A DNA stretch of 55,074 nucleotides, taken from IMG/VR virus record IMGVR_UViG_2880361019_000008. One strand, written 5' to 3'. This document shows, piece by piece, positions 10,218 through 43,133 of this stretch. Each line of letters starts with the position of its first letter. Positions within the stretch are counted from its first letter, which is position 1. Position numbers and translations under genes: made by a program. This stretch comes from a virus (lineage: Duplodnaviria > Heunggongvirae > Uroviricota > Caudoviricetes). The notes under the pieces are model-generated. The model made no database searches, had not been told where the DNA came from, and saw only the letters and a list, made by a program, of their open reading frames with translations.

Positions 10218-10802
10218 ATGACCACTTTTACAAAAGAGCAGTTAATCAGTCATGTTAGTGAAAATGTAAAGGCGATGAAATTTGCAGTAAAACAGACAGC
10301 ATTCAAAAATTCTCTCGAGGCAATTGAGTTGGATTTAGCACTGGCCCTTGTTGCTCAGGCTTCGCTGGAAGCAGAGCCCGTGCTTTATATGAATCGATTT
10401 ACTGGAAAGACATTCTCACTGGAAGAGCAACCCGGTGCTGATAAGGAACCGGAAATATACGTGCCGCTATATGCTGCCCCGCCAGACAGCGCCGCCATGC
10501 TTCAGGCTGGAAACTTTCGGGAAAAGAAGGGTTCGTCAACCAATAATTTTCGGGAAATCTCGGAAACGTCAACCAACTATCCGGTAACTCTGGATGGTTG
10601 GATAAGCTGTAGTGAGCGAATGCCGGATGACGGTCAGCACGTAATTATTTTATGTGATGGCGCATTCGTTCTTTATGCGCAATATCGAGACGGTGAGTTT
10701 TTTGATGTAGTCCGTGATGGTGATGAATTTTTCGAAACACAGAGCCGCAATGTAACCGACTGGATGCCGCTACCAGAACCGCCGCAGGAGGTGCGCCAAT
10801 GA
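10218..10802 (+). CDS. Hypothetical phage protein with C-terminal DUF551-like region
   Basis: ATG 10218 preceded by AAGGAG; C-terminal ...DGWISCSERMPDDGQHVIILCDG...VTDWMPLPEPP. Confidence 0.5.
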   Translation: MTTFTKEQLISHVSENVKAMKFAVKQTAFKNSLEAIELDLALALVAQASLEAEPVLYMNRFTGKTFSLEEQPGADKEPEIYVPLYAAPPDSAAMLQAGNFREKKGSSTNNFREISETSTNYPVTLDGWISCSERMPDDGQHVIILCDGAFVLYAQYRDGEFFDVVRDGDEFFETQSRNVTDWMPLPEPPQEVRQ

Positions 10803-11022: not shown

Positions 11023-11210
11023 ATTCATTACGATATGGGAATTCCCATATCGGGTAAAAACGGTTTGCGGTAAAGCGAGAGTTAAGTAGAATTGCTGCGG
11101 GTGCTTGAGGCTGTCTGCCTCGGGCATGACACCGTAAGGCAGACAGAGAAAAGCCCCAGTTAACATTACGCGTCCTGCAAGACGCCTAACATTAATCTGA
11201 GGCCAATTTC

Positions 11211-11423
11211 ATGCTAGACACATGTAGGTTAGCCTCTTACGCGCCGAAAGGCAAGGAGAAGCAGGCTATGAAGCAGCAAAAGGCGATGTTAATCGCCCTG
11301 ATCGTCATCTGTATTACCGTCATAGTGACGGCACTGGTAACGAGGAAAGACCTCTGCGAGGTACGAATCCGAACCGGCCAGACGGAGGTCGTTGTCTTCA
11401 CAGCTTACGAACCTGAGGAGTAA
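11211..11423 (+). CDS. mok: Mok-like overlapping reading frame (in-frame N-terminal extension of hok)
   Basis: 70-aa ORF sharing frame and stop with the hok-like gene, as in chromosomal mok/hok loci. Confidence 0.45.
   Translation: MLDTCRLASYAPKGKEKQAMKQQKAMLIALIVICITVIVTALVTRKDLCEVRIRTGQTEVVVFTAYEPEE
11268..11423 (+). CDS. hok: Hok/Gef-family type I toxin
   Basis: 51-aa MKQQKAMLIALIVICITVIVTALVTRKDLCEVRIRTGQTEVVVFTAYEPEE resembles Hok; SD AGGAG 9 nt upstream. Confidence 0.8.
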   Translation: MKQQKAMLIALIVICITVIVTALVTRKDLCEVRIRTGQTEVVVFTAYEPEE

Positions 11424-12933: not shown

Positions 12934-13305
12934 ATGCGTATAGAGTTTGTTTTGCCTTATCCGCCGACGGTGAATACTTACTGGCGACGTCGTGGCAGCA
13001 CATATTTTGTATCAAAAGTCGGTGAGTGTTATCGCCGTGATGTGGCGCTTATTGTTCGCCAGCAGCGGCTGAAATTAAGCCTGTCCGGAAGGCTGGCGAT
13101 AAAAATTATTGCAGAGCCACCGGATAAGCGGCGTCGTGACCTGGACAATATCCTGAAGGCACCACTGGATGCGCTGACGCATGCCGGACTACTCATAGAC
13201 GACGAGCAGTTTGATGAAATCAATATTGTGCGCGGTCAGCTCGTTCCTGGTGGGCGGCTGGGCGTGAAGATTTACGAAATCACAGGTGATAACGATGGCG
13301 CGTGA
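12934..13305 (+). CDS. rusA: Holliday junction resolvase RusA
   Basis: 123-aa ORF with RusA-like motifs (Dx[13 protein letters not shown]). Confidence 0.85.
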
Positions 13306-13681
13306 TATTCAGCAGGTTATGGAACGGTGGGGGGCTTGGGCTGCAAACACTCATGAAGATGTATCCTGGGCGTCGATCGCTGCTGGTTTTAAAGGGTTAA
13401 TTCCGTCGAAAGTGAAATCACGTCCTCAGTGTTCTGATGATGATGCAATGATAATTTGTGGCTGTATGGCCCGGTTAAACAAGAAAAATCAGGATTTGCA
13501 CGATTTGCTGGTGGATTATTACGTATATGGAATGACTTTTATGAGTCTGGCACGGAAACTTGGATGTTCGGATACCTGTGTTGGTAAGCGCCTGCAGAAG
13601 GCGGAAGGGGTTATCGATGGCATGTTGATGATGCTTGATATCCGGCTGGAGATGGACAGATATGTAGAACGAATTATGTAG
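13286..13681 (+). CDS. Late-gene antiterminator Q
   Basis: 131-aa ORF downstream of rusA, followed by promoter-like and terminator elements; alternative start at 13295. Confidence 0.7.
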
Positions 13682-13685
13682 GTGC

Positions 13686-13715
13686 TTGACCATATACATT
13701 GTCCGGGGCTATATT
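13686..13715 (+). promoter_or_regulatory. Candidate late promoter (PR' analogue): TTGACC-N18-TATATT
   Basis: -35 and -10 hexamers immediately after Q stop. Confidence 0.35.
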
Positions 13716-13777
13716 CCTCGCGCGTCAGCAAAATCTGGCGTCGGGATTGGAACCCCGGATATTCAACCGCGACAGAC

Positions 13778-13801
13778 ACACGCCGCGAGCGTGTTTTTTA
13801 T
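13778..13801 (+). terminator. Intrinsic terminator (tR' analogue)
   Basis: Hairpin ACACGC-CGCGA-GCGTGT followed by TTTTTT. Confidence 0.55.
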
Positions 13802-13963
13802 TGTCGTAAGCACACGCACATCTGAATAATGGTGGGGCGTATGGGGGAGCTGAAAGGCTCGCCGGTTGGTTGATCCGGTAGTTCCAACCCTGTACGTCTC
13901 ACCACCCAATGATTGGAACCTGACGGTGGTGATAGTTAAATCCATCAACCAGAGGGCGTTATC

Positions 13964-14524
13964 ATGACGACTCAAGTTTCTGTCGAAACTCTTTCCCCGA
14001 TCACACACAACCAGCTCCCAGTTGTCACTACAGAGTTACTGGCCAAACTATATGGCTGTAGCGTCGAGTGTATTCATAGAAATCACCACCGTAATAAAGA
14101 GCGATTTGCAGAAGGGAAGCACTACATAATTGCGAAAGGCGCAGACCTCCAAAATTTGAAAATCTCTTTAAGGGATTTTCAAACGATCGCCCCAAATGTC
14201 CGAAAGCTCATACTCTGGACAGAACGCGGAGCAGCCCGTCACGCCAAAATGCTCGAAACCGATCAGGCGTGGGAAGTATTCGAAAAACTGGAAGACTGTT
14301 ATTTCAACCAAAAACAACCACCAGCGGCACAAAACACATCTATCGAAAATGATGGATGCGCATTACTGATCCACTTCGATAAACACGGTCAGGTTGAGTT
14401 CACGGAAAAGGTACCCGCCGATGCGATGGTATGCACTCTGGAACGGTTTAAATTTTATCTGGAGCAACACGGGTGGATCGTTGCCCGTAAAGAGCAACTG
14501 GTGGAGCGGTTGATGCGGTTTTAA
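13964..14524 (+). CDS. ORF6N/KilA-N-type DNA-binding protein (antirepressor-like)
   Basis: 186-aa ORF in the late leader; no stronger identification possible. Confidence 0.6.
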   Translation: MTTQVSVETLSPITHNQLPVVTTELLAKLYGCSVECIHRNHHRNKERFAEGKHYIIAKGADLQNLKISLRDFQTIAPNVRKLILWTERGAARHAKMLETDQAWEVFEKLEDCYFNQKQPPAAQNTSIENDGCALLIHFDKHGQVEFTEKVPADAMVCTLERFKFYLEQHGWIVARKEQLVERLMRF

Positions 14525-14600
14525 AAATTTTTCCGAAAACTTTACGATCGTAAAAAGTCGAATATCCTGTTAAGAGTGGTTACTACGCCACACAGCTTAA

Positions 14601-14624
14601 ACCCGTCGCCAGGCGGGTTTTTTG
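14601..14624 (+). terminator. Intrinsic terminator
   Basis: ACCCG..CGGGT hairpin containing CGCCAGGCGG core, then T6. Confidence 0.45.
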
Positions 14625-15292
14625 TTATGTGCAGGCCACCCCGGGTGGGTGAAATGTTATTTTCTTCCGTAAGGGCATATCGCCAGGATACAGCGATCAT
14701 TGGTGCATCGGTTTTTGGGCTGCTCCGACTCTGCAGGGCAGCCTTTGTTGTTTTTGATTAAACTCCAGAGTTTTTTATTGAAGGGCGTCACGTTGTAGAT
14801 GGTTATGGGGTACTTTTTATTGTCAAGTATGATGCCGGCGTGAACAGGGGTAAAGGAGCTGTCCGGAGGAAGAAACACATCCGACTGATACCAGATTATT
14901 AACTTTATTTCACACCATATGGCTGAAAATGATATTCCGCTCGATGGCTGTATCACCGTGTCAATCACTATCCAGTTCATGTGTTGTGTCTTTCATTGGA
15001 GGAGGAGCGGAGTGTCAGAAGTATAAGTGGTAATCTGTGATCCATGGCACAGAATGGGCCTTTTTTCTGCGTTGTTTGGCGGTTGTTGAAGGAAAGGGAA
15101 AAGGCATCCAGGAGTAAAATGCTCACTCTGAGGGGCTTACCACAGGAGTTGGTAGCTTGCTGGTGGTTTGTTTGATAACAAAATCTTAAATATTCGCCAG
15201 CTTATTGTTAGCATCCTTAATATTGTGTATTTTCAACAGCGCAGGATGACCCTGTGACGAAGCATTCGTTTGTTCCATCATGAAAGTATTTT

Positions 15293-15322
15293 GCCAGCCT
15301 CCCCAAGTGGCTGGCTTTTTTT
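15293..15322 (+). terminator. Intrinsic terminator
   Basis: GCCAGCC-N9-GGCTGGC hairpin followed by T7. Confidence 0.6.
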
Positions 15323-15331
15323 ATGCCATTA

Positions 15332-15357
15332 ACCGGCCACGCCAGGCGGTTTTTTTA
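15332..15357 (+). terminator. Intrinsic terminator (second of tandem pair; same CGCCAGGCGG core as 14601)
   Basis: GC-rich hairpin followed by T7. Confidence 0.45.
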
Positions 15358-15532
15358 TTGGAGATGAATAACCGTATACTGGATGAACAGTCGACAGATT
15401 TTTTAATAATAAAATCCGAATATACGGTGTCTGCTTATTGTTAGCTGGCTTATATTTTTGTATTTTACTGAACCGCAGGATAAAGCCTGTACCAACGATT
15501 GTATGATGAGTAATTTTAAACCTTGTAATTTA

Positions 15533-15565
15533 CCAGTCAGCATCTGGTGACTGGTTTCTTTTTGG
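15533..15565 (+). terminator. Intrinsic terminator
   Basis: CCAGTCA-N8-TGACTGG hairpin followed by T-rich tract. Confidence 0.6.
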
Positions 15566-15620
15566 GGACTGATTACTCGGTCAGTACGGTCAGTCAGGCA
15601 GAATCCGGACGAATATAAAA

Positions 15621-15699
15621 CCGTCACTAGCTCATCGGGAAAGAGCGAACAACGCCAGAGGTTGTTGTATGGTGCGGGGTTCGAGTCCCCGGTGACGGT
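15621..15699 (+). tRNA. tRNA-like element, probably degenerate (perfect acceptor and T arms, good D arm, irregular anticodon arm; no encoded CCA)
   Basis: 7-bp acceptor stem CCGTCAC/GTGACGG, T arm CGGGG-TTCGAGT-CCCCG, D stem GCTC/GAGC; anticodon region does not fit the canonical 5-bp stem plus 7-nt loop. Confidence 0.4.
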
Positions 15700-15729
15700 C
15701 CGGTTGCAATAATAAATTCATTTCAGACG

Positions 15730-15753
15730 GGCTCGCTACGGCGGGCCTTTTTT
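15730..15753 (+). terminator. Intrinsic terminator just downstream of the tRNA-like element
   Basis: 7-bp stem GGCTCGC/GCGGGCC with TACG tetraloop, then T6. Confidence 0.6.
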
Positions 15754-15961
15754 GTATCCGTGCCAGGCCCGCTGCACATCAACCACAGTGCCTTTTTAAA
15801 ATTGATCGCAGTGTGGCGTTATATGAAATCGAAGAAGTAAAACACGATTCGTGTGAAGCGGAAGATGTGCTGGATGTGGCGGTGGCTATTGCGGAAGCAG
15901 ATGGTGAAATTGAGCCGGAAGAGATCGCCGTTGTTCCGGGCCTTCGTCTGGAGAACCTCCT

Positions 15962-16129
15962 GTGAAGGTAAAACTGCGTCTGGCTGTGGTTGCACTACTG
16001 TTGTTTCTGGTGGTGATGGTGGATTTCACCAGCAGAATCATGTCGGTGCTGGCGGATGGGGTGCTGGTCTGCGGCATTGTGGTATTGCTGTGGCCGGTGA
16101 TAAAAAGAAACAGCCTGCATAATGCTTGA
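15962..16129 (+). CDS. Candidate 55-aa hydrophobic membrane peptide
   Basis: GTG start overlapping the stop of an upstream acidic reading frame (15813..15965); predicted double-TM; SD GGAG about 10 nt upstream. Confidence 0.25.
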   Translation: MKVKLRLAVVALLLFLVVMVDFTSRIMSVLADGVLVCGIVVLLWPVIKRNSLHNA

Positions 16130-16330
16130 TTTTTTTATTTGCTGTTTATTAAAAACACCACTGCATGGTGAATCCCCCTGTGCGGTGGGGCAATCAGCAA
16201 GAAGGAATATGGGGTAACCGCGGATTCAGGTGCTGATACTGAATTCACCGGGAGGCACCCGGCACCATGCTTTGCCACAAAAGTGTTATTTCTGTTTTTC
16301 TCAAACTATCATCGTTATCCCTTTATTTTC

Positions 16331-16357
16331 GGCTGCGCATGGCGCGGCCTTTTTTTT
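16331..16357 (+). terminator. Intrinsic terminator upstream of nanS-p
   Basis: 8-bp GC-rich stem with 3-nt loop followed by T8. Confidence 0.55.
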
Positions 16358-16443
16358 ACGACCAGCCACTGGCAGATGGTCATCCTGTGATTTGATTCCG
16401 GTTCCGGCTTTTTAACTCTGTTCCTCTACACGGGAGAAATTCG

Positions 16444-18294
16444 ATGTCGATTAAACATTATGATGTTGTCAGGGCGGCGTCGCCGTCAGACCTTGCGGAA
16501 AAGCTGACACACAAACTGAAAGAGGGCTGGCAGCCATACGGCGGACCGGTTGCCATTACGCCGTACACACTGATGCAGGCGGTGGCTATTGAAGGAGAGC
16601 CACAGGTCGGCCCTTCATCTGAGCCGGATTGGTACTACGTCATCGTACTGGCCGGGCAGTCCAATGCCATGGCTTACGGTGAAGGGCTTCCGCTGCCGGA
16701 TTCATACGATGCTCCGGATCCGTGCATTAAACAGCTGGCGCGCCGCAGTACAGTGACGCCGGGCGGGACTGCCTGCAGATATAACGATATTATTCCGGCC
16801 GACCACTGCCTGCATGATGTGCAGGATATGAGTACGCTGAATCATCCGAAGGCAGACCTGATCAAAGGGCAGTACGGCTGTGTCGGCCAGGGCTTACATA
16901 TTGCCAAAAAACTGCTTCCGTATATCCCGAATAACGCGGGGATCCTGCTGGTACCATGCTGTCGTGGTGGTTCGGCATTCACCCAGGGCGCGGAGGGGAC
17001 ATTCAGCGAGTCCACGGGGGCCAGTCAGGATTCGGCACGCTGGGGGGTGGGCAAGCCGTTATATCAGGATCTGATTTCCCGCACAAAAGCGGCATTGCAG
17101 AAAAATCCCAAAAACGTTCTGCTGGCCGTCTGCTGGATGCAGGGTGAGTTTGACATGAGCGCCGCCACCCACGCACAGCAACCTGCGCTGTTTACAGCCA
17201 TGCTGACACAGTTTCGTGCTGACCTCTCCGTGTTTAACGCGCAGTGCCATGGTGGCAGTGCTGCAGATGTGCCGTGGATTTGTGGTGACACGACGTATTA
17301 CTGGAAAAATACATACGCTACCCAGTACGACACCGTGTACGGCGGGTATAAAAACAGGGAGAGTGAGGGCGTTTATTTTGTGCCCTTCATGACAGACGGT
17401 AACGGCGTCAATACCGCCACTAACGCGCCGGCAGAAGATCCGGATATTCCGGCATCAGGATATTACGGTGCGGCATCGAGAACGAATGGAAACCAGGTAT
17501 CATCAAACCGCCCGACACATTTCAGTTCATGGGCGCGCAGGAGCATTATTCCGGATCGTCTGGCAACCGCTATTCTGAACGCAGCCGGGCGCACCTCCGC
17601 CTTCATCAGTGGTAAGGCACCGGAAATCAAACCCTCGCCCGGCGGCAACACGCCATCGGGTCCGTCTGCAGATACGTCCGTTCGCACAATCTCCCTGCTG
17701 CCGGCAGCCGGAGAGGCTGCTGCGCAGGGCTGGAGCATTAAGGATGGCGGAATTCAGTTGTCAGATGGTGTATTTAAGATCACCAAGCAGAGCAATAAAA
17801 CCTGGTCCCTGACGTATCCGGTGGATGACGCAATTACCCTGCTGACACAGGGCGGCAGACTGACCTGTAAGTTCCGCCTGTCAGGCGCACTGACCAACAA
17901 TCAGTTCGGGCTGGGGATTTATCTGTATACGGATGCTCCCGTTCCTGATGGTGTGGCGATGACGGGTACCGGTAATCCGTTCCTGATGTCGTACTTCACT
18001 CAGACCACTGACGGCAGAGTGAATCTGATGCATCACAGGAAAGCCGGAAACACGAAGCTGGGGGAGTTCGGCGATTACGGTAACGACTGGCAGACGCTGG
18101 AGCTGGTGTTCACCGCCGGCAGTGCCACGGTTACTCCGAAACTGAATGGAGTGGCTGGCCCGGCATTCCAGGTTATAAAAGACAGTCTGACACTGGGACT
18201 GAATGCGCTGACGCTGACGGATGTTACAAAAAATGCAGCGTATGGCGTTGAGATAGAAAGTCTGATGCTGGAGATAAATGCACCGGCAGCATAA
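16444..18294 (+). CDS. nanS-p: Prophage sialate O-acetylesterase NanS-p (N-terminal DUF1737-like region plus SGNH/SASA esterase domain)
   Basis: 616-aa ORF; GQSNA esterase motif; sits between late leader and lysis genes. Confidence 0.85.
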   Translation: MSIKHYDVVRAASPSDLAEKLTHKLKEGWQPYGGPVAITPYTLMQAVAIEGEPQVGPSSEPDWYYVIVLAGQSNAMAYGEGLPLPDSYDAPDPCIKQLARRSTVTPGGTACRYNDIIPADHCLHDVQDMSTLNHPKADLIKGQYGCVGQGLHIAKKLLPYIPNNAGILLVPCCRGGSAFTQGAEGTFSESTGASQDSARWGVGKPLYQDLISRTKAALQKNPKNVLLAVCWMQGEFDMSAATHAQQPALFTAMLTQFRADLSVFNAQCHGGSAADVPWICGDTTYYWKNTYATQYDTVYGGYKNRESEGVYFVPFMTDGNGVNTATNAPAEDPDIPASGYYGAASRTNGNQVSSNRPTHFSSWARRSIIPDRLATAILNAAGRTSAFISGKAPEIKPSPGGNTPSGPSADTSVRTISLLPAAGEAAAQGWSIKDGGIQLSDGVFKITKQSNKTWSLTYPVDDAITLLTQGGRLTCKFRLSGALTNNQFGLGIYLYTDAPVPDGVAMTGTGNPFLMSYFTQTTDGRVNLMHHRKAGNTKLGEFGDYGNDWQTLELVFTAGSATVTPKLNGVAGPAFQVIKDSLTLGLNALTLTDVTKNAAYGVEIESLMLEINAPAA

Positions 18295-18297
18295 TAA

Positions 18298-18590
18298 AAA
18301 AAGCCAGCGACTGATCTGAAAAAGAAGACGCTGGCTAAAAGGCCTTATATGTTTGTAGAGACTTATTTTTCACAGACAGCAATGATGCCTGTCAATATAT
18401 TATCAATATGCGGATTGTTTCAGTTACAGATGCCTTATTAAGGAAAAAAACAGCCAGCACTGACTTTCGGTGGAGAGGTGCTGGCTCAAAAGGATAGATG
18501 TACTTCACATGTTGCTTCTATATGGCAGTACATTTTCTGACAGACAGTGACGGATGTTGTCAAGATATTGTGTCATTTATAACCTGAATC
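18298..18590. repeat. Two imperfect direct copies of a roughly 140-bp element, each starting with an A-run and a stem-loop (18303-18335; 18453-18485)
   Basis: Stems GCCAGCG/CGCTGGC and GCCAGCAC/GTGCTGGC with compensatory differences; both followed by AAAAGG and GACAGACAG-containing tracts. Confidence 0.4.
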
Positions 18591-18741
18591 AGGGGAGGCC
18601 GGAATGTTATCTGGCATTTTTAGCAGAGCCTGAATGCCATGATCACGGCTCCCGGCGTTGGCCGTCAGTGGGTGACACTGGCGGCTTTTTTGTTTTTCTT
18701 TACTTTCATTTTCTGTCGGCGGTGACGGAGACATACATCAG

Positions 18742-39860: not shown

Positions 39861-40716
39861 ATGCCAACAGTTCCAATTTCTATGAGAAAACTTAAAGAAA
39901 TTCTTAGGCTTAAATACGGTGTTGGACTCAGCCATCGACAAATTGGTCGTAGTCTTGCAATCTCCCCTTCCGTTGTATCCAGATATGCTAATCGGGCGGC
40001 TCAACTTGGCATAAAGCAGTGGCCCTTACCTACAGGATGGGATGATACAAAACTAAAACATGCGTTCCTTCAGACCCAGGTTAAGATGAAGAAGCACTCT
40101 CTGCCTGACTGGGCTACAGTACACCGGGAACTGCGTAATAAATGCGTGACGCTGCAGCTACTCTGGGAAGAATACTGTGAGCGTAATCCAGGCGGTTTTT
40201 ACAGCTATAACCATTACTGCCGGATGTACCGTGAATGGCTCAAAACCACTTCACCATCAATGCGTCAGGTACATAAAGCTGGCGAAAAACTTTTCGTTGA
40301 TTACTGTGGACCTACCGTTGGCGTTACCGACCCTGAGACCGGAGAAATAAGAACTGCTCAGGTCATCGTAGCTGTTCTCGGGGCATCAAGTTACACATGG
40401 GCAGAGGCCACCTGGTCTCAGCAGCTTGAAGACTGGGTGATGAGTCATGTTCGCTGCTTCCAGTGGTTGGGTGGCGTTCCTGAACTTGTTGTTCCGGACA
40501 ATCTGAAAAGCGCCACATCCAGGGCATGTAAGTATGATCCTGACGTTAACCCTACCTACCAGCAGATGCTTGAGCATTATAATGTCGCAGTTTTGCCTGC
40601 GCGGCCACGTAAACCGAAAGATAAAGCCAAAGCTGAAGTTGGCGTTCAGGTTGTTGAACGCTGGATCATGGCCCGAATCAGGCATGAGATCTTCTACAGC
40701 CTTGCATCGCTTAATC
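39861..40716 (+). pseudogene. istA: IS21-family transposase IstA, N-terminal fragment (interrupted by IS66-family element)
   Basis: 302-aa ORF with HTH and integrase-core motifs; reading frame continues at 43171. Confidence 0.8.
40709..40716. repeat. Target-site duplication GCTTAATC (left copy) of the IS66-family insertion
   Basis: Identical 8-mer at 43171-43178 flanking GTAAGCG...CGCTTAC ends. Confidence 0.7.
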
Positions 40717-40797
40717 GTAAGCGTCGTCTCAGCACCGTCTGGCAGATCCTGAAATTCCTGAGAGAATAGTGGACACCAAATATGGTGGACGCTATCC

Positions 40798-41202
40798 ATG
40801 AAATCATTAACCGCAGTGCGTAAAAAAAGCCCTAATTATCCCGTTGAGTTCAAAATCAAAATGGTTGAACTCTCGCATCGACCAGAGATCTCCGTAGCGC
40901 AACTCGCTCGTGAGCATGGGATCAACGATAATTTGCTGTTCAAGTGGCGCCAGTACTGGCGCGAAGGAAAACTACGTCCTCCTTCAACAACAGAAAACAA
41001 CGTGCCTGAGCTGCTCCCGATAACACTTGATGCCGAAGATGTTGTCCCTACAACCTCCCCCCGGTCACAACCTGTAGCTGCTGCGACACCTGAATCACTC
41101 AATATCAGCTGTGAAGTGACGTTCCGGCACGGATCACTCCGTCTGAATGGTGCCATCAGCGAAAATATCCTGAACCTGCTGATACGGGAGCTCAAACGTT
41201 GA
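40798..41202 (+). CDS. IS66-family accessory protein (orf1/TnpA)
   Basis: 134-aa ORF, first of three IS66 ORFs. Confidence 0.85.
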   Translation: MKSLTAVRKKSPNYPVEFKIKMVELSHRPEISVAQLAREHGINDNLLFKWRQYWREGKLRPPSTTENNVPELLPITLDAEDVVPTTSPRSQPVAAATPESLNISCEVTFRHGSLRLNGAISENILNLLIRELKR

Positions 41203-41546
41203 TCCCATTACCATCAGGGACAAAGATCTGGCTGGTCGCTGGCATCACCGATATGAGAAACGGCTTCAACGGCCTGGCGGCAAAGGTGCAGACGACGCTG
41301 AAAGACGATCCGATGTCAGGTCACGTTTTTATCTTCCGTGGGCGTAATGGCAGTCAGGTAAAGCTCCTCTGGTCTACCGGCGATGGACTGTGTCTGCTGA
41401 CCAAACGGCTGGAGCGCGGCCGCTTCGCCTGGCCGTCAGCCCGGGATGGCAAAGTGTTCCTCACACCGGCACAGCTGGCGATGCTGCTGGAAGGTATCGA
41501 CTGGCGGCAGCCTAAAAGACTGCTTACGTCCCTGACTATGTTGTAA
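41199..41546 (+). CDS. IS66-family accessory protein (orf2/TnpB)
   Basis: 115-aa ORF overlapping orf1 stop. Confidence 0.85.
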   Translation: MIPLPSGTKIWLVAGITDMRNGFNGLAAKVQTTLKDDPMSGHVFIFRGRNGSQVKLLWSTGDGLCLLTKRLERGRFAWPSARDGKVFLTPAQLAMLLEGIDWRQPKRLLTSLTML

Positions 41547-41594
41547 GCCTCTTTATCCTGGTCGACGCTGAATGAGCCTGGTAATATACCCGGT

Positions 41595-43133
41595 ATGAGC
41601 AGCTCACTTCCTGACGATATCAATGCACTGAAACGTCTCCTTGCCGAACAGGAGGCGCTGAACCGTGCCCTGCAGGAAAAGCTGAACGAGCGTGAACGCG
41701 AAATAGACCATCTGCAGGCACAGCTGGATAAGCTGCGCCGGATGAACTTCGGCAGCCGCTCGGAAAAAGTCTCCCGTCGTATCGCACAGATGGAAGCTGA
41801 CCTGAAGGCACTTCAGAAAGAAAGTGATACCCTTACCGGTCGGGTTGACGACCCGGCCGTGCAGCGCCCGCTGCGTCAAACCCGCACCCGCAAACCGTTC
41901 CCCGAATCACTCCCCCGCGATGAAAAACGGCTGCTGCCGGCAGCGTCATGCTGCCCGGAATGTGGAGGCTCGCTGAGCTATCTGGGTGAGGATGCCGCCG
42001 AACAGCTGGAGCTGATGCGCAGCGCCTTCCGGGTTATCCGGACTGTACGTGAAAAGCATGCCTGTACTCAGTGCGATGCCATCGTGCAGGCCCCCGCGCC
42101 TTCACGGCCCATCGAGCGGGGTATCGCAGGACCGGGGCTGCTGGCCCGCGTGCTGATCTCAAAGTATGCAGAGCACACCCCGCTGTACCGCCAGTCTGAA
42201 ATGTACGGCCGCCAGGGCGTGGAGCTGAGTCGTTCACTGCTGTCGGGCTGGGTGGATGCATGCTGCCGGCTACTGTCACCGCTGGAAGAAGCGCTTCAGG
42301 ACTATGTGCTGACTGACGGTAAGCTCCATGCTGATGACACGCCTGTCCCGGTGCTGTTGCCAGGCAATAAGAAAACGAAGACCGGGCGGTTATGGACCTA
42401 CGTTCGTGACGACCGTAACGCCGGGTCAACGCTGGCGCCGGCGGTGTGGTTCGCTTACAGCCCGGACAGAAAAGGCATCCATCCGCAGACCCATCTTGCG
42501 GGGTTCAGTGGTGTACTGCAGGCGGATGCATACGCCGGGTTCAACGAGCTGTACCGGGATGGCCGGATAACGGAAGCCGCCTGTTGGGCTCACGCCCGCC
42601 GTAAAATCCACGATGTGCACGTTCGCACCCCGTCAGCCCTGACGGAGGAAGCGCTGAAACGGATCGGCGAACTGTACGCCATCGAGGCAGAGATAAGGGG
42701 AATGACGGCGGAGCAGCGCCTTGCCGAACGTCAGTTGAAAACGAAACCGCTGCTGAAATCCCTGGAAAGCTGGCTGCGTGAAAAGATGAAAACCCTGTCG
42801 CGACACTCAGAACTGGCGAAAGCGTTCGCATACGCCCTGAACCAGTGGCCGGCGCTGACGTACTATGCAGATGATGGCTGGGCTGAGGCGGACAATAACA
42901 TCGCTGAAAATGCGTTGCGGATGGTCAGTCTGGGCCGCAAAAACTACCTGTTCTTCGGTTCGGATCATGGAGGAGAGCGGGGAGCGCTGCTGTACAGCCT
43001 GATCGGGACGTGCAAACTGAACGGAGTGGAGCCAGAAAGCTACCTCCGCTATGTCCTTGACGTCATAGCCGACTGGCCGATAAACCGGGTCGGCGAACTG
43101 CTCCCCTGGCGCGTAGCACTGCCGACTGAATAA
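41595..43133 (+). CDS. IS66-family transposase (orf3)
   Basis: 512-aa ORF with N-terminal coiled coil and zinc-ribbon CPECGG. Confidence 0.9.

Follow-up and report, generated by a model that had tools for sequence, protein, structure and literature searches.

Organization of the interval between Q and nanS-p

The DNA analysed here (the window) is a stretch of 55,074 nucleotides (nt) from a virus of the Caudoviricetes (IMG/VR record IMGVR_UViG_2880361019_000008). The region of interest is the interval from 13686 to 16443, between the gene for the antiterminator Q and a nanS-p-type sialate O-acetylesterase gene, which is the first protein gene of the late operon past the leader. In phages carrying Shiga toxin 2a genes (Stx2a phages; Sakai Sp5, 933W and F723) the corresponding order is Q933, the late promoter PR', the small RNA (sRNA) StxS with its terminator tR', the tRNA genes ileZ-argN-argO, a terminator, stx2AB, STnc100/AsxR and nanS-p. 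The features found in the window are as follows.

13286..13681, plus strand: gene of the antiterminator Q (PF06530, 176 bits; Q21/Q933W family), upstream context
13686..13715, plus strand: module promoter TTGACC-18-TATATT, sigma-70-like, 10/12 consensus positions
13709-13761, plus strand: c4-a1b1 (RF03163), a1/b1 target box, full length, 49.3 bits against a gathering score of 46.7
13722-13799, plus strand: isrK (RF01394), IsrK-type short RNA, full length, 75.6 bits against a gathering score of 50
13778-13800, plus strand: terminator T1 (hairpin 13778-13794, T-run to 13800), -11.5 kcal/mol, end of IsrK
13825-13909, plus strand: C4 antisense RNA (RF01695), STnc1160 equivalent, full length, 71.8 bits against a gathering score of 45
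13911..13956, plus strand: b2 (13911-13921) and a2 (13944-13952) targets of the C4 loops, motifs from alignment
13964..14524, plus strand: ORF6N-domain antirepressor gene, AnrP/Ant-like (PF10543, 60 bits; PHROG 2379 'anti-repressor', 281 bits, full length)
14541..14576, plus strand: probable PR' of the Q933 type (-35 TTTACG 14541-14546, -10 TATCCT 14563-14568, inferred start at about 14576)
14599-14626, plus strand: T2, -14.5 kcal/mol, PR'-proximal 'hairpin 1', +24 to +51 of the inferred PR' transcript
14657..14980, minus strand: iraM-family gene (RssB anti-adaptor), 107 amino acids (NCBIfam NF007393, 152.2 bits against a cut-off of 121; PHROG 4407)
15174..15322, plus strand: StxS-like sRNA unit 1 with T4, homologous to the StxS/tR' part of the Stx2a leader
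15293-15322, plus strand: T4, -14.5 kcal/mol, homologue of the Stx-phage tR', end of unit 1
15333-15358, plus strand: T5, -7.8 kcal/mol, weak, 'hairpin 1' of the second cassette
15396..15563, plus strand: StxS-like sRNA unit 2 with T6, a diverged paralogue
15532-15563, plus strand: T6, -13.7 kcal/mol, end of unit 2
15621..15701, plus strand: aberrant tRNA-like element (ARAGORN tRNA-Leu(CAG); acceptor, D and T arms intact)
15729-15754, plus strand: T7, -16.4 kcal/mol, the terminator that follows the tRNA array in Stx-type phages
15813-15965, plus strand: terB/tciA remnant, the C-terminal 50 codons (PF05099, partial; deletion joint at 15795)
15962-16129, plus strand: DUF3927/TciB-like gene, intact (PF13064, 61 bits)
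16126..16357, plus strand: STnc100/PasD-family sRNA (RF02076, match 16137-16303, 98.5 bits against a gathering score of 47)
16331-16357, plus strand: T9, -15.4 kcal/mol, end of the STnc100/PasD-family sRNA
16444..18294, plus strand: nanS-p-type sialate O-acetylesterase gene (DUF1737, SASA and DUF6645; PHROG 143, 1150 bits)

In public assemblies Q is called as a protein of 128 amino acids with its start at ATG 13295.

Collinearity with the late region of Stx2a phages

Alignment with the late region of F723/Sp5, a check proposed by a first reading made from the sequence alone (the sequence-only reading), showed that the two regions are collinear, with identities of 78% for PR', 75% for StxS/tR' and 79% for Q (amino acid identity to the Q of F723/Sakai Sp5, which is Q933, of the Q21/Q933W family); F723 and Sakai Sp5 are 99.8% identical to each other in this region. 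Shared are the proximal hairpin, a StxS-like sRNA with the tR' hairpin, the post-tRNA terminator and STnc100 directly before nanS-p, all in the same order. Unlike the Stx2a phages, the window has an isrK/C4/antirepressor module between Q and PR', an iraM gene within the PR'-to-tR' leader, a duplicated StxS-like cassette and a single aberrant tRNA-like element where the Stx2a phages have three tRNAs; stx is absent, and a terB remnant and a DUF3927 gene are found instead.

The sequence-only reading had described the region as of the Stx-phage type but toxin-free, which agrees both with the synteny with Stx2a phage F723 and with the open reading frame (ORF) and domain searches, in which no ORF of stx size or stx family was found between Q and the esterase. 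A Stx-converting phage would carry stxA and stxB between the tRNA region and nanS-p; the terB remnant and DUF3927 occupy that place here. The interval contains only two ORFs of at least 100 amino acids, the ORF6N gene, which that reading had also recognised and which lies at 13964-14524, and the minus-strand ORF at 14657-14980.

The probable late promoter PR'

Sy et al. mapped PR' and the StxS sRNA in Sp5, with a distance of 258 nt from PR' to tR' and an RNase E site at +173 (PMC7547250). In F723 a start at locus position 10536 follows from the elements -35 TTTACG and -10 TATCAT; counted from there, a GUAUU motif occupies +171 to +175, and +258 is the last position of the U-run of the hairpin GCCAGCCTCCCCCAGTGGCTGGC. 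Since the inferred start, the GUAUU site and the 258-nt terminator distance reproduce the published values, the mapping of PR' in F723 is secure. The segment 14541-14626 of the window aligns to the post-Q DNA of F723/Sakai Sp5 with 69 of 88 positions identical (78%), which makes 14541-14576 the probable PR' and would place the isrK/C4/antirepressor module between Q and its PR'. The leader at 14576-14630 folds with a z-score of -3.75, and the PR'-proximal hairpin that corresponds to T2 is also present in Sp5. There (Sp5/F723 10560-10588) it is a canonical-looking intrinsic terminator about 25-52 nt past the mapped PR' start, with the published 3' end at +258; either termination is inefficient at so short a distance from the promoter, or the published libraries did not capture a very short RNA.

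The isrK/C4/antirepressor module and its promoter

The best consensus promoter of the interval is the one at 13686, which starts 5 nt past the Q stop codon and lies 860 bp upstream of the PR' homologue. The module was aligned from four contexts: the window and E. coli SCU-125, where it follows this Q in both cases, E. coli 2000-3039, and Stx2a phage F723. In strain 2000-3039 the module with the same promoter follows an unrelated DUF1133 gene, and in F723 the promoter sits in the nin region, 3 kb upstream of Q. Because the -35 TTGAC and the -10 TATATT are invariant across these contexts while everything upstream diverges, the comparison identifies the 13686 promoter as a part of the module and not of Q. 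The proposal of the sequence-only reading that a PR'-like promoter lies at 13686 was therefore correct as to the sigma-70-like site and probably wrong as to its role, since the promoter travels with the module away from Q.

The module has the architecture of an antisense switch of the P1 immI type, with loops complementary both to upstream boxes and to boxes near the ribosome-binding site. Loop b' of the C4 RNA (GUUCCAA) pairs with b1 (13745-13753) and with b2, and loop a' (UUGGUUGAU) pairs with a2, which lies directly beside, or extends into, the Shine-Dalgarno sequence of the ORF6N gene. Three sequence variants of the module differ in the C4 loops, and the a1/b1 boxes (within IsrK) and the a2/b2 boxes change in step; at the level of the loops the cognate loop-target duplex was the most stable in 11 of 12 comparisons among these variants. 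Comparison of the whole RNAs of C4 and targets with RNAduplex gave long, implausible duplexes and noisy matrices, and was replaced by this loop-level comparison. By the logic of P1/P7, the C4 RNA would mask the ribosome-binding site of the antirepressor gene and the upstream a1/b1 boxes would compete for C4.

Two known systems are comparable. The immI region of P1/P7 (c4, a1/b1, a2/b2, icd, ant) shares with the module the promoter, the upstream boxes, the C4 RNA, the boxes proximal to the ribosome-binding site and an antirepressor, and its specificity is likewise set by matched loop and target sequences; it differs in that the window has no icd-like ORF, an antirepressor of the ORF6N type and a location inside a lambdoid late region. 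The antQ-isrK-orf45(STnc1160)-anrP-isrJ region of Gifsy-1 (PMC4825925) has the same order of a Q-family gene, IsrK with a terminator, a C4-like RNA and an antirepressor. The C4 RNA of the window spans a remnant of the Gifsy-1 orf45, with ATG codons at 13829 and 13841, spaced as those at Gifsy-1 positions 107 and 119, and a stop at 13871-13873. This frame has only 14 codons and ends 90 nt before the ORF6N start, so that the translational coupling of orf45 and anrP cannot apply unchanged, and a leader ORF coupled to the antirepressor in the manner of icd or orf45 is not present. Unlike Gifsy-1, the window shows no IsrJ match and has a separate Q933-type PR' after the antirepressor.

Two hairpin and StxS-like sRNA cassettes

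Over 15174-15325, unit 1 is identical to positions 10644-10796 of Stx2a phage F723 at 114 of 153 positions (75%), ends in the same terminator hairpin and folds with a z-score of -2.95; it thus has the properties of a StxS RNA, namely a location in the PR' leader, a tR' end and sequence homology. The seed of StxS, CCCUGUAACGAAG, pairs with the site in the rpoS leader that DsrA, RprA and ArcZ also use. The corresponding seed of unit 1, CCCUGUGACGAAG, is likewise complementary to the rpoS leader (UUCGUUACAAGGG), one of the pairs being G.U. Unit 2 is 79-82% identical to units in E. coli M8 (L004), E. coli RM10740 (L005) and eleven viral contigs, and in its seed, CCUGUACCAACGA, the rpoS complementarity is broken by 3 nt. 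Duplex prediction with RNAduplex between the whole units and the rpoS leader yielded implausible duplexes and uninformative z-scores, and the direct comparison of seeds was used in its place. In their consensus fold, the StxS-like units have a hairpin at the 5' end, are A/U-rich and single-stranded in the middle, and close with a terminator stem in which two pairs are compensatory. Each unit is preceded by a promoter-like TTGTTA-17-TATTTT, and transcription from their own promoters is therefore possible. A search of 14520-15800 against Rfam at permissive thresholds gave only chance-level hits and no family for the StxS-like units or the tRNA-like element.

The cores of T2 and T5 (14607-14626 and 15340-15359) match at 18 of 20 positions. 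They are the only such direct pair in the interval, and this level of similarity was reached in 0 of 60 dinucleotide shuffles. In M8, RM10740, the viral contigs and the Stx2a phage, the unit is preceded at a distance of about 70 nt by a hairpin that has CCGCC...GGCGG as its core and is followed by a T-run; the counterparts of this hairpin in the window are T2 and T5. Because equivalent hairpins precede the unit in other phages, the alignment identifies T2 and T5 as the paralogous first hairpins of two tandem cassettes. For the same reason, namely the hairpins upstream of the unit in M8 and RM10740, the notion of T5 as a defective half-copy of T2, left behind when a segment was inserted, was dropped. 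The first cassette does carry an insertion of about 550 bp (14627-15173), which comprises iraM and its promoter and replaces about 55 nt of the Stx2a phage. T2 is, in addition, the end of the ORF6N unit and a joint of the mosaic: SCU-125 is homologous only as far as 14623, and a post-Q terminator in another prophage (L003) has an identical stem-loop. An exact scan of the T4/T5 junction gave no match.

The sequence-only reading had noticed the likeness of the terminators at 14601 and 15332 and had proposed an inserted or swapped segment between them. The cassette alignment and the shuffles agree with shared ancestry and rearrangement. The insertion is real as well, although it consists of iraM and its promoter (approximately 14627-15173) and not of the whole stretch from T2 to T5. 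That this stretch is AT-rich is true only to a mild degree (GC 0.42-0.50); the lowest GC content of the interval, 0.375-0.395, is found past T5.

The iraM-family gene

The minus-strand ORF at 14657-14980, which had been described as weak and without a Shine-Dalgarno sequence, is an intact iraM-family gene scoring above the NF007393 cut-off. Its product is identical to K-12 IraM at 67 of 107 residues (63%), end to end and without gaps, and the start context AAGACAyAACA-ATG, in which no Shine-Dalgarno sequence is evident, is common to this ORF and K-12 iraM. With a nonsynonymous divergence (dN) of 0.27 and saturated synonymous sites, the gene is under purifying selection. The -10 element TATACT at 15025-15020 on the minus strand is also found with the prophage iraM copies of two other E. 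coli strains. Those copies lie, at other positions, between Q and the lysis genes and opposite to late transcription. A PhoP-box-like repeat was not found upstream of iraM in a search of the window. The only candidate terminator of the gene is T2 in reverse.

The nucleotide identity to any copy among 5,426 complete E. coli genomes is at most approximately 82%, which points to a distinct lineage, and a protein-based scan of one genome per species gave no confirmed relative. The exact protein is present on 24 contigs. IraM, IraL and RssC inhibit the adaptor RssB, by which RpoS is stabilised (PMC4045071). These anti-adaptors are IraM of K-12 (next to e14), IraL of CFT073 and RssC of Salmonella. 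The window protein has 107 amino acids, aligns without gaps to IraM and has the same weak ribosome-binding context as K-12 iraM, and from this homology we infer that it would likewise inhibit RssB and stabilise RpoS. In contrast to those genes, its gene lies within the late leader of a prophage, on the strand opposite to late transcription.

The tRNA-like element and the slot of stx2AB

The element at 15621-15701, which had been noted as tRNA-like, was indeed called by ARAGORN on the plus strand, but it gave no hit to the Rfam tRNA model (RF00005) even at E<=10. At minimum energy it folds into a cloverleaf, with an anticodon/variable region that exceeds the expected length by 5 nt and is not conserved; homologues are assigned by ARAGORN as tRNA-Val(AAC). 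It thus lacks the 7-nt anticodon loop, the consistent anticodon and the Rfam detection expected of a canonical tRNA, and the long anticodon/variable region, the shifting identity and the missing Rfam hit speak against a decoding role. Compared with the common variant in other phages, the T arm and acceptor contain 31 invariant nt against an identity of about 75% in the flanks, and a G-C pair of the D stem is replaced by A-U in a compensatory change; these features hint at constraint, on the few variants available (5-6 distinct ones). A lesser possibility is that the element works as a structured RNA, for instance in processing or stabilising the sRNA next to it.

The element recurs, unannotated, downstream of StxS-like units in M8 (4867-4948), RM10740 (4381-4462) and the viral contigs L009-L019. 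In M8, positions 4066-4138 and 4145-4216, between iraM and the StxS-like unit, give Rfam tRNA matches of 38 and 30 bits and have no ARAGORN call or annotation; these may be further decaying members of a phage tRNA array.

The sequence at 15730-15795, which includes T7, is 86% identical to the sequence right after argO in L003, which has a tRNA array of the Stx type, and a similar hairpin follows argO in F723. The cassette that comes next (15795..16129; PHROG 632 and 1470) begins at a deletion joint, where the terB promoter and the 5' two-thirds of the gene have been removed; TerB is intact in the comparison loci L003 and L007. The terB remnant and DUF3927 fill the slot that stx2AB occupies in F723, between the post-tRNA terminator and STnc100.

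The STnc100/PasD-family sRNA

Membership of the last sRNA before nanS-p in the STnc100/PasD family follows from a score above the gathering threshold and from its position before the prophage esterase gene. It is preceded by a promoter-like TTGATT...TTAAAA at 16126-16154. Since the T9 hairpin, GGCTGCGCATGGCGCGGCC, is identical to the published 3' end of PasD1 (Pas sRNA fragments and coordinates were taken from the Science Advances supplement), T9 is identified by this match as the sRNA's own terminator. The segment 15971-18800 of the window is 95% identical to prophage PP2 of enteropathogenic E. coli (EPEC) E2348/69, where PasD2 is found at the same place before the esterase. PP2 has the order DUF3927, PasD2, sialate esterase, PasA and holin (PMC8550237), and the window shares this order, the sRNA terminator and a PasA homologue. 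The two differ in the sRNA body, which is of the PasD type in PP2 and of the STnc100 type here: the flanks are near-identical to PP2, but the PasD seed UGUGAG is absent from the body. PasD2 is abundant in EPEC lysogens, with a BaseMean of about 11,000 (PMC8550237). The divergence between STnc100 and PasD bodies has been described in the Pas preprint (bioRxiv 10.64898/2026.05.13.724894).

When aligned to PP2 (L030 3141-3340), the sRNA body (16137-16330) is far more diverged than the 95%-identical flanking genes, which looks like an exchange of the body alone or like its rapid evolution. An exact match to the published EPEC PasA core lies on the minus strand at 18451-18505, between the esterase and holin genes, and consists of a hairpin (GCCAGCACC...GGUGCUGGC) followed by a U-run. 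A strong plus-strand terminator is found past it at 18660-18696.

Terminators and the units that they end

A pattern search detected 9 terminator-like sites in the interval, against 3.2 +/- 1.9 in shuffled sequences, with 7 of the 9 on the plus strand. T4 and T5, both on the plus strand, come from folding and are outside these 9 sites. On folding, from which all hairpin energies were obtained, there are six strong and one weak plus-strand intrinsic terminators, in agreement with the earlier count of at least seven co-directional ones. The hairpins at 15036-15075 and 16385-16420 fold weakly (-6.5 and -3.2 kcal/mol) and were dropped as terminators. The view that these are anonymous terminators of one leader did not hold, since each ends a recognisable unit (IsrK, the two StxS-like units, the tRNA-like unit and the STnc100/PasD sRNA). 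Most would be the 3' ends of small transcription units that the Q-modified polymerase would read through. The leader is indeed dense in co-directional terminators, and the suggestion that the downstream late genes, nanS-p included, depend on Q read-through is plausible.

Distribution and other features of the prophage

Eight loci were compared over 13286-16443, or over the portion of it that was present: seven, among which chromosome CP034212.1 is 100% identical over the interval, show no differences and one has a single mismatch. At a coverage of at least 80%, the interval occurs in none of 5,426 complete RefSeq E. coli genomes and none of 50,697 phage records. Because the matching loci are near-identical and none of these genomes or phage records covers 80%, the comparison marks the interval as a rare mosaic of one prophage lineage, assembled from common parts.

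Elsewhere in the prophage, the sok antitoxin RNA (Rfam, 117.5 bits) is found on the plus strand at 11099-11273, in a hok/sok module upstream of the DUF968-RusA-Q genes, and the DicF sRNA (Rfam, 73.4 bits) on the minus strand at 4534-4585 in the early region. A gene for a 1133-amino-acid DUF4765 protein at 51124-54525, near the right prophage end, is probably cargo. The tail-gene region contains, at 39861-43133, an ORF with an integrase core of the IS3 type and a complete three-ORF element of the IS66 family.

Interpretation

We consider, with a probability of roughly 0.7, that the interval corresponds, in a toxin-free form, to the late regulatory region of Stx2a phages and was reshaped as modules were inserted, duplicated and lost. 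The evidence consists of family memberships, homologies, synteny and order, hairpin stability and the co-variation of C4 with its targets; promoter activity, the action of Q at 14541 and the functions that the sRNAs and IraM would have in vivo are projected from it. The functional order would be Q, a switch of the P1 immI/Gifsy-1 type with a constitutive promoter, PR' with T2, iraM, StxS-like unit 1 with T4, T5 with unit 2 and T6, the tRNA-like element with T7, the terB remnant with DUF3927, the STnc100/PasD sRNA with T9, and finally nanS-p and the lysis genes. In a lysogenic cell, transcription of the small units would start at their own promoters or at PR' and end at the terminator of each unit, giving regulatory RNAs and IraM with the late genes kept silent; λ 6S RNA, StxS, IsrK and PasD are the precedents for this proposed mechanism. 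Upon induction, Q would load at PR' and the polymerase would pass T2, T4, T5, T6, T7 and T9, running antisense through iraM, and would then reach nanS-p, the lysis genes and the structural genes. T1, being upstream of the inferred PR', would be part of the antirepressor switch only.

Several observations weigh against this interpretation. The 14541 promoter matches the consensus at only 8 of 12 positions and was missed by the promoter scan, and its -10 TATCCT is weaker than the TATCAT of Sp5. In a search made without a reference Q933/Q21 site sequence, a Q-binding or sigma-dependent pause element was recognised neither at the 13686 nor at the 14541 promoter, and neither candidate has a convincing conserved -10-like element in the early transcribed region. 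The RNase E site GUAUU, by which StxS is released in Sp5, is not conserved, the homologous positions reading CAACAGC in unit 1 and ACUGAAC in unit 2. T2 looks efficient and lies only 24-51 nt past the start, so that little PR' transcription may reach unit 1 without Q. Since Sy et al. describe the Gifsy-1 IsrK as made from an antitermination-regulated promoter, the 13686 promoter could by analogy also be Q-responsive. Finally, given the IS3-type ORF and the IS66-family element inserted in the tail region, the prophage may be defective and late read-through may no longer matter.

The sequence-only reading took 13686 as the Q-dependent PR', the following 2.7 kb as a single late leader, and the stretch between 14601 and 15332 as swapped at repeated terminators. 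The quality of the 13686 promoter and its closeness to Q fit this model, as do the same antQ-isrK order in Gifsy-1, with its antitermination-regulated promoter, and the non-random T2/T5 similarity at a mosaic joint. We nevertheless regard it as improbable: promoters of the 13686 type move with the module to sites without an adjacent Q or after an unrelated gene, the homologue of the mapped Q933-type PR' lies downstream, T5 aligns with the hairpin that normally precedes StxS-like units, so that T2 and T5 are not insertion borders, the actual insertion (iraM) ends at about 15173, and every terminator can be assigned to an identifiable unit.

Another explanation would treat the interval as functionless relics in a defective prophage, with the terminators as leftovers. 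Truncation of terB, failure of the tRNA-like element to fit the tRNA model, reduction of orf45 to 14 codons, the interrupted seed of unit 2, the weakness of T5 and the IS3/IS66 elements are all as expected from decay. Purifying selection on iraM, the internally matched sets of C4, a1/b1 and a2/b2, terminator stems that keep their pairing by compensatory changes, and scores of STnc100, IsrK and C4 well above thresholds argue against it, as do the abundant expression of the PasD2 relative at the same position in EPEC and the 100% identity of the interval in at least seven assemblies (one mismatch in another). General decay thus seems unlikely. A more speculative proposal, of low probability in our estimate, is that the late leader is a compact island for RpoS control, in which a StxS-like sRNA with a seed fitting rpoS and an IraM-family anti-adaptor acting against RssB/ClpXP are interleaved and reciprocally controlled by transcriptional interference. 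Constitutive PR' transcription that escapes T2 would then run antisense through iraM before yielding the sRNA, and the state of Q (off or on), together with host signals at the iraM promoter, would set RpoS levels reciprocally.

Significance

Every component belongs to a described family, and in its overall logic the interval is a lambdoid late leader that carries a load of morons and sRNA genes; the current understanding of Q antitermination is unchanged by these findings. What is new is modest: the arrangement, in which a switch separates Q from PR', iraM lies in the StxS leader and the StxS-like cassette occurs twice, together with a tRNA-like element that is aberrant yet conserved. The locus illustrates that the promoter nearest to Q need not be PR', and that a prophage 'terminator forest' can be resolved, one unit after another, into sRNA and moron cassettes that are already known. 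It further indicates that the late control backbone of Stx phages exists in toxin-free relatives, with exchangeable slots, as seen for stx2AB versus terB/DUF3927, for the tRNA array versus a relic, and for iraM, which occupies three positions in different phages. The StxS-like sRNA and the IraM homologue adjoin each other and both would raise RpoS, which provides a testable idea on how prophages may tune stress responses of the host.

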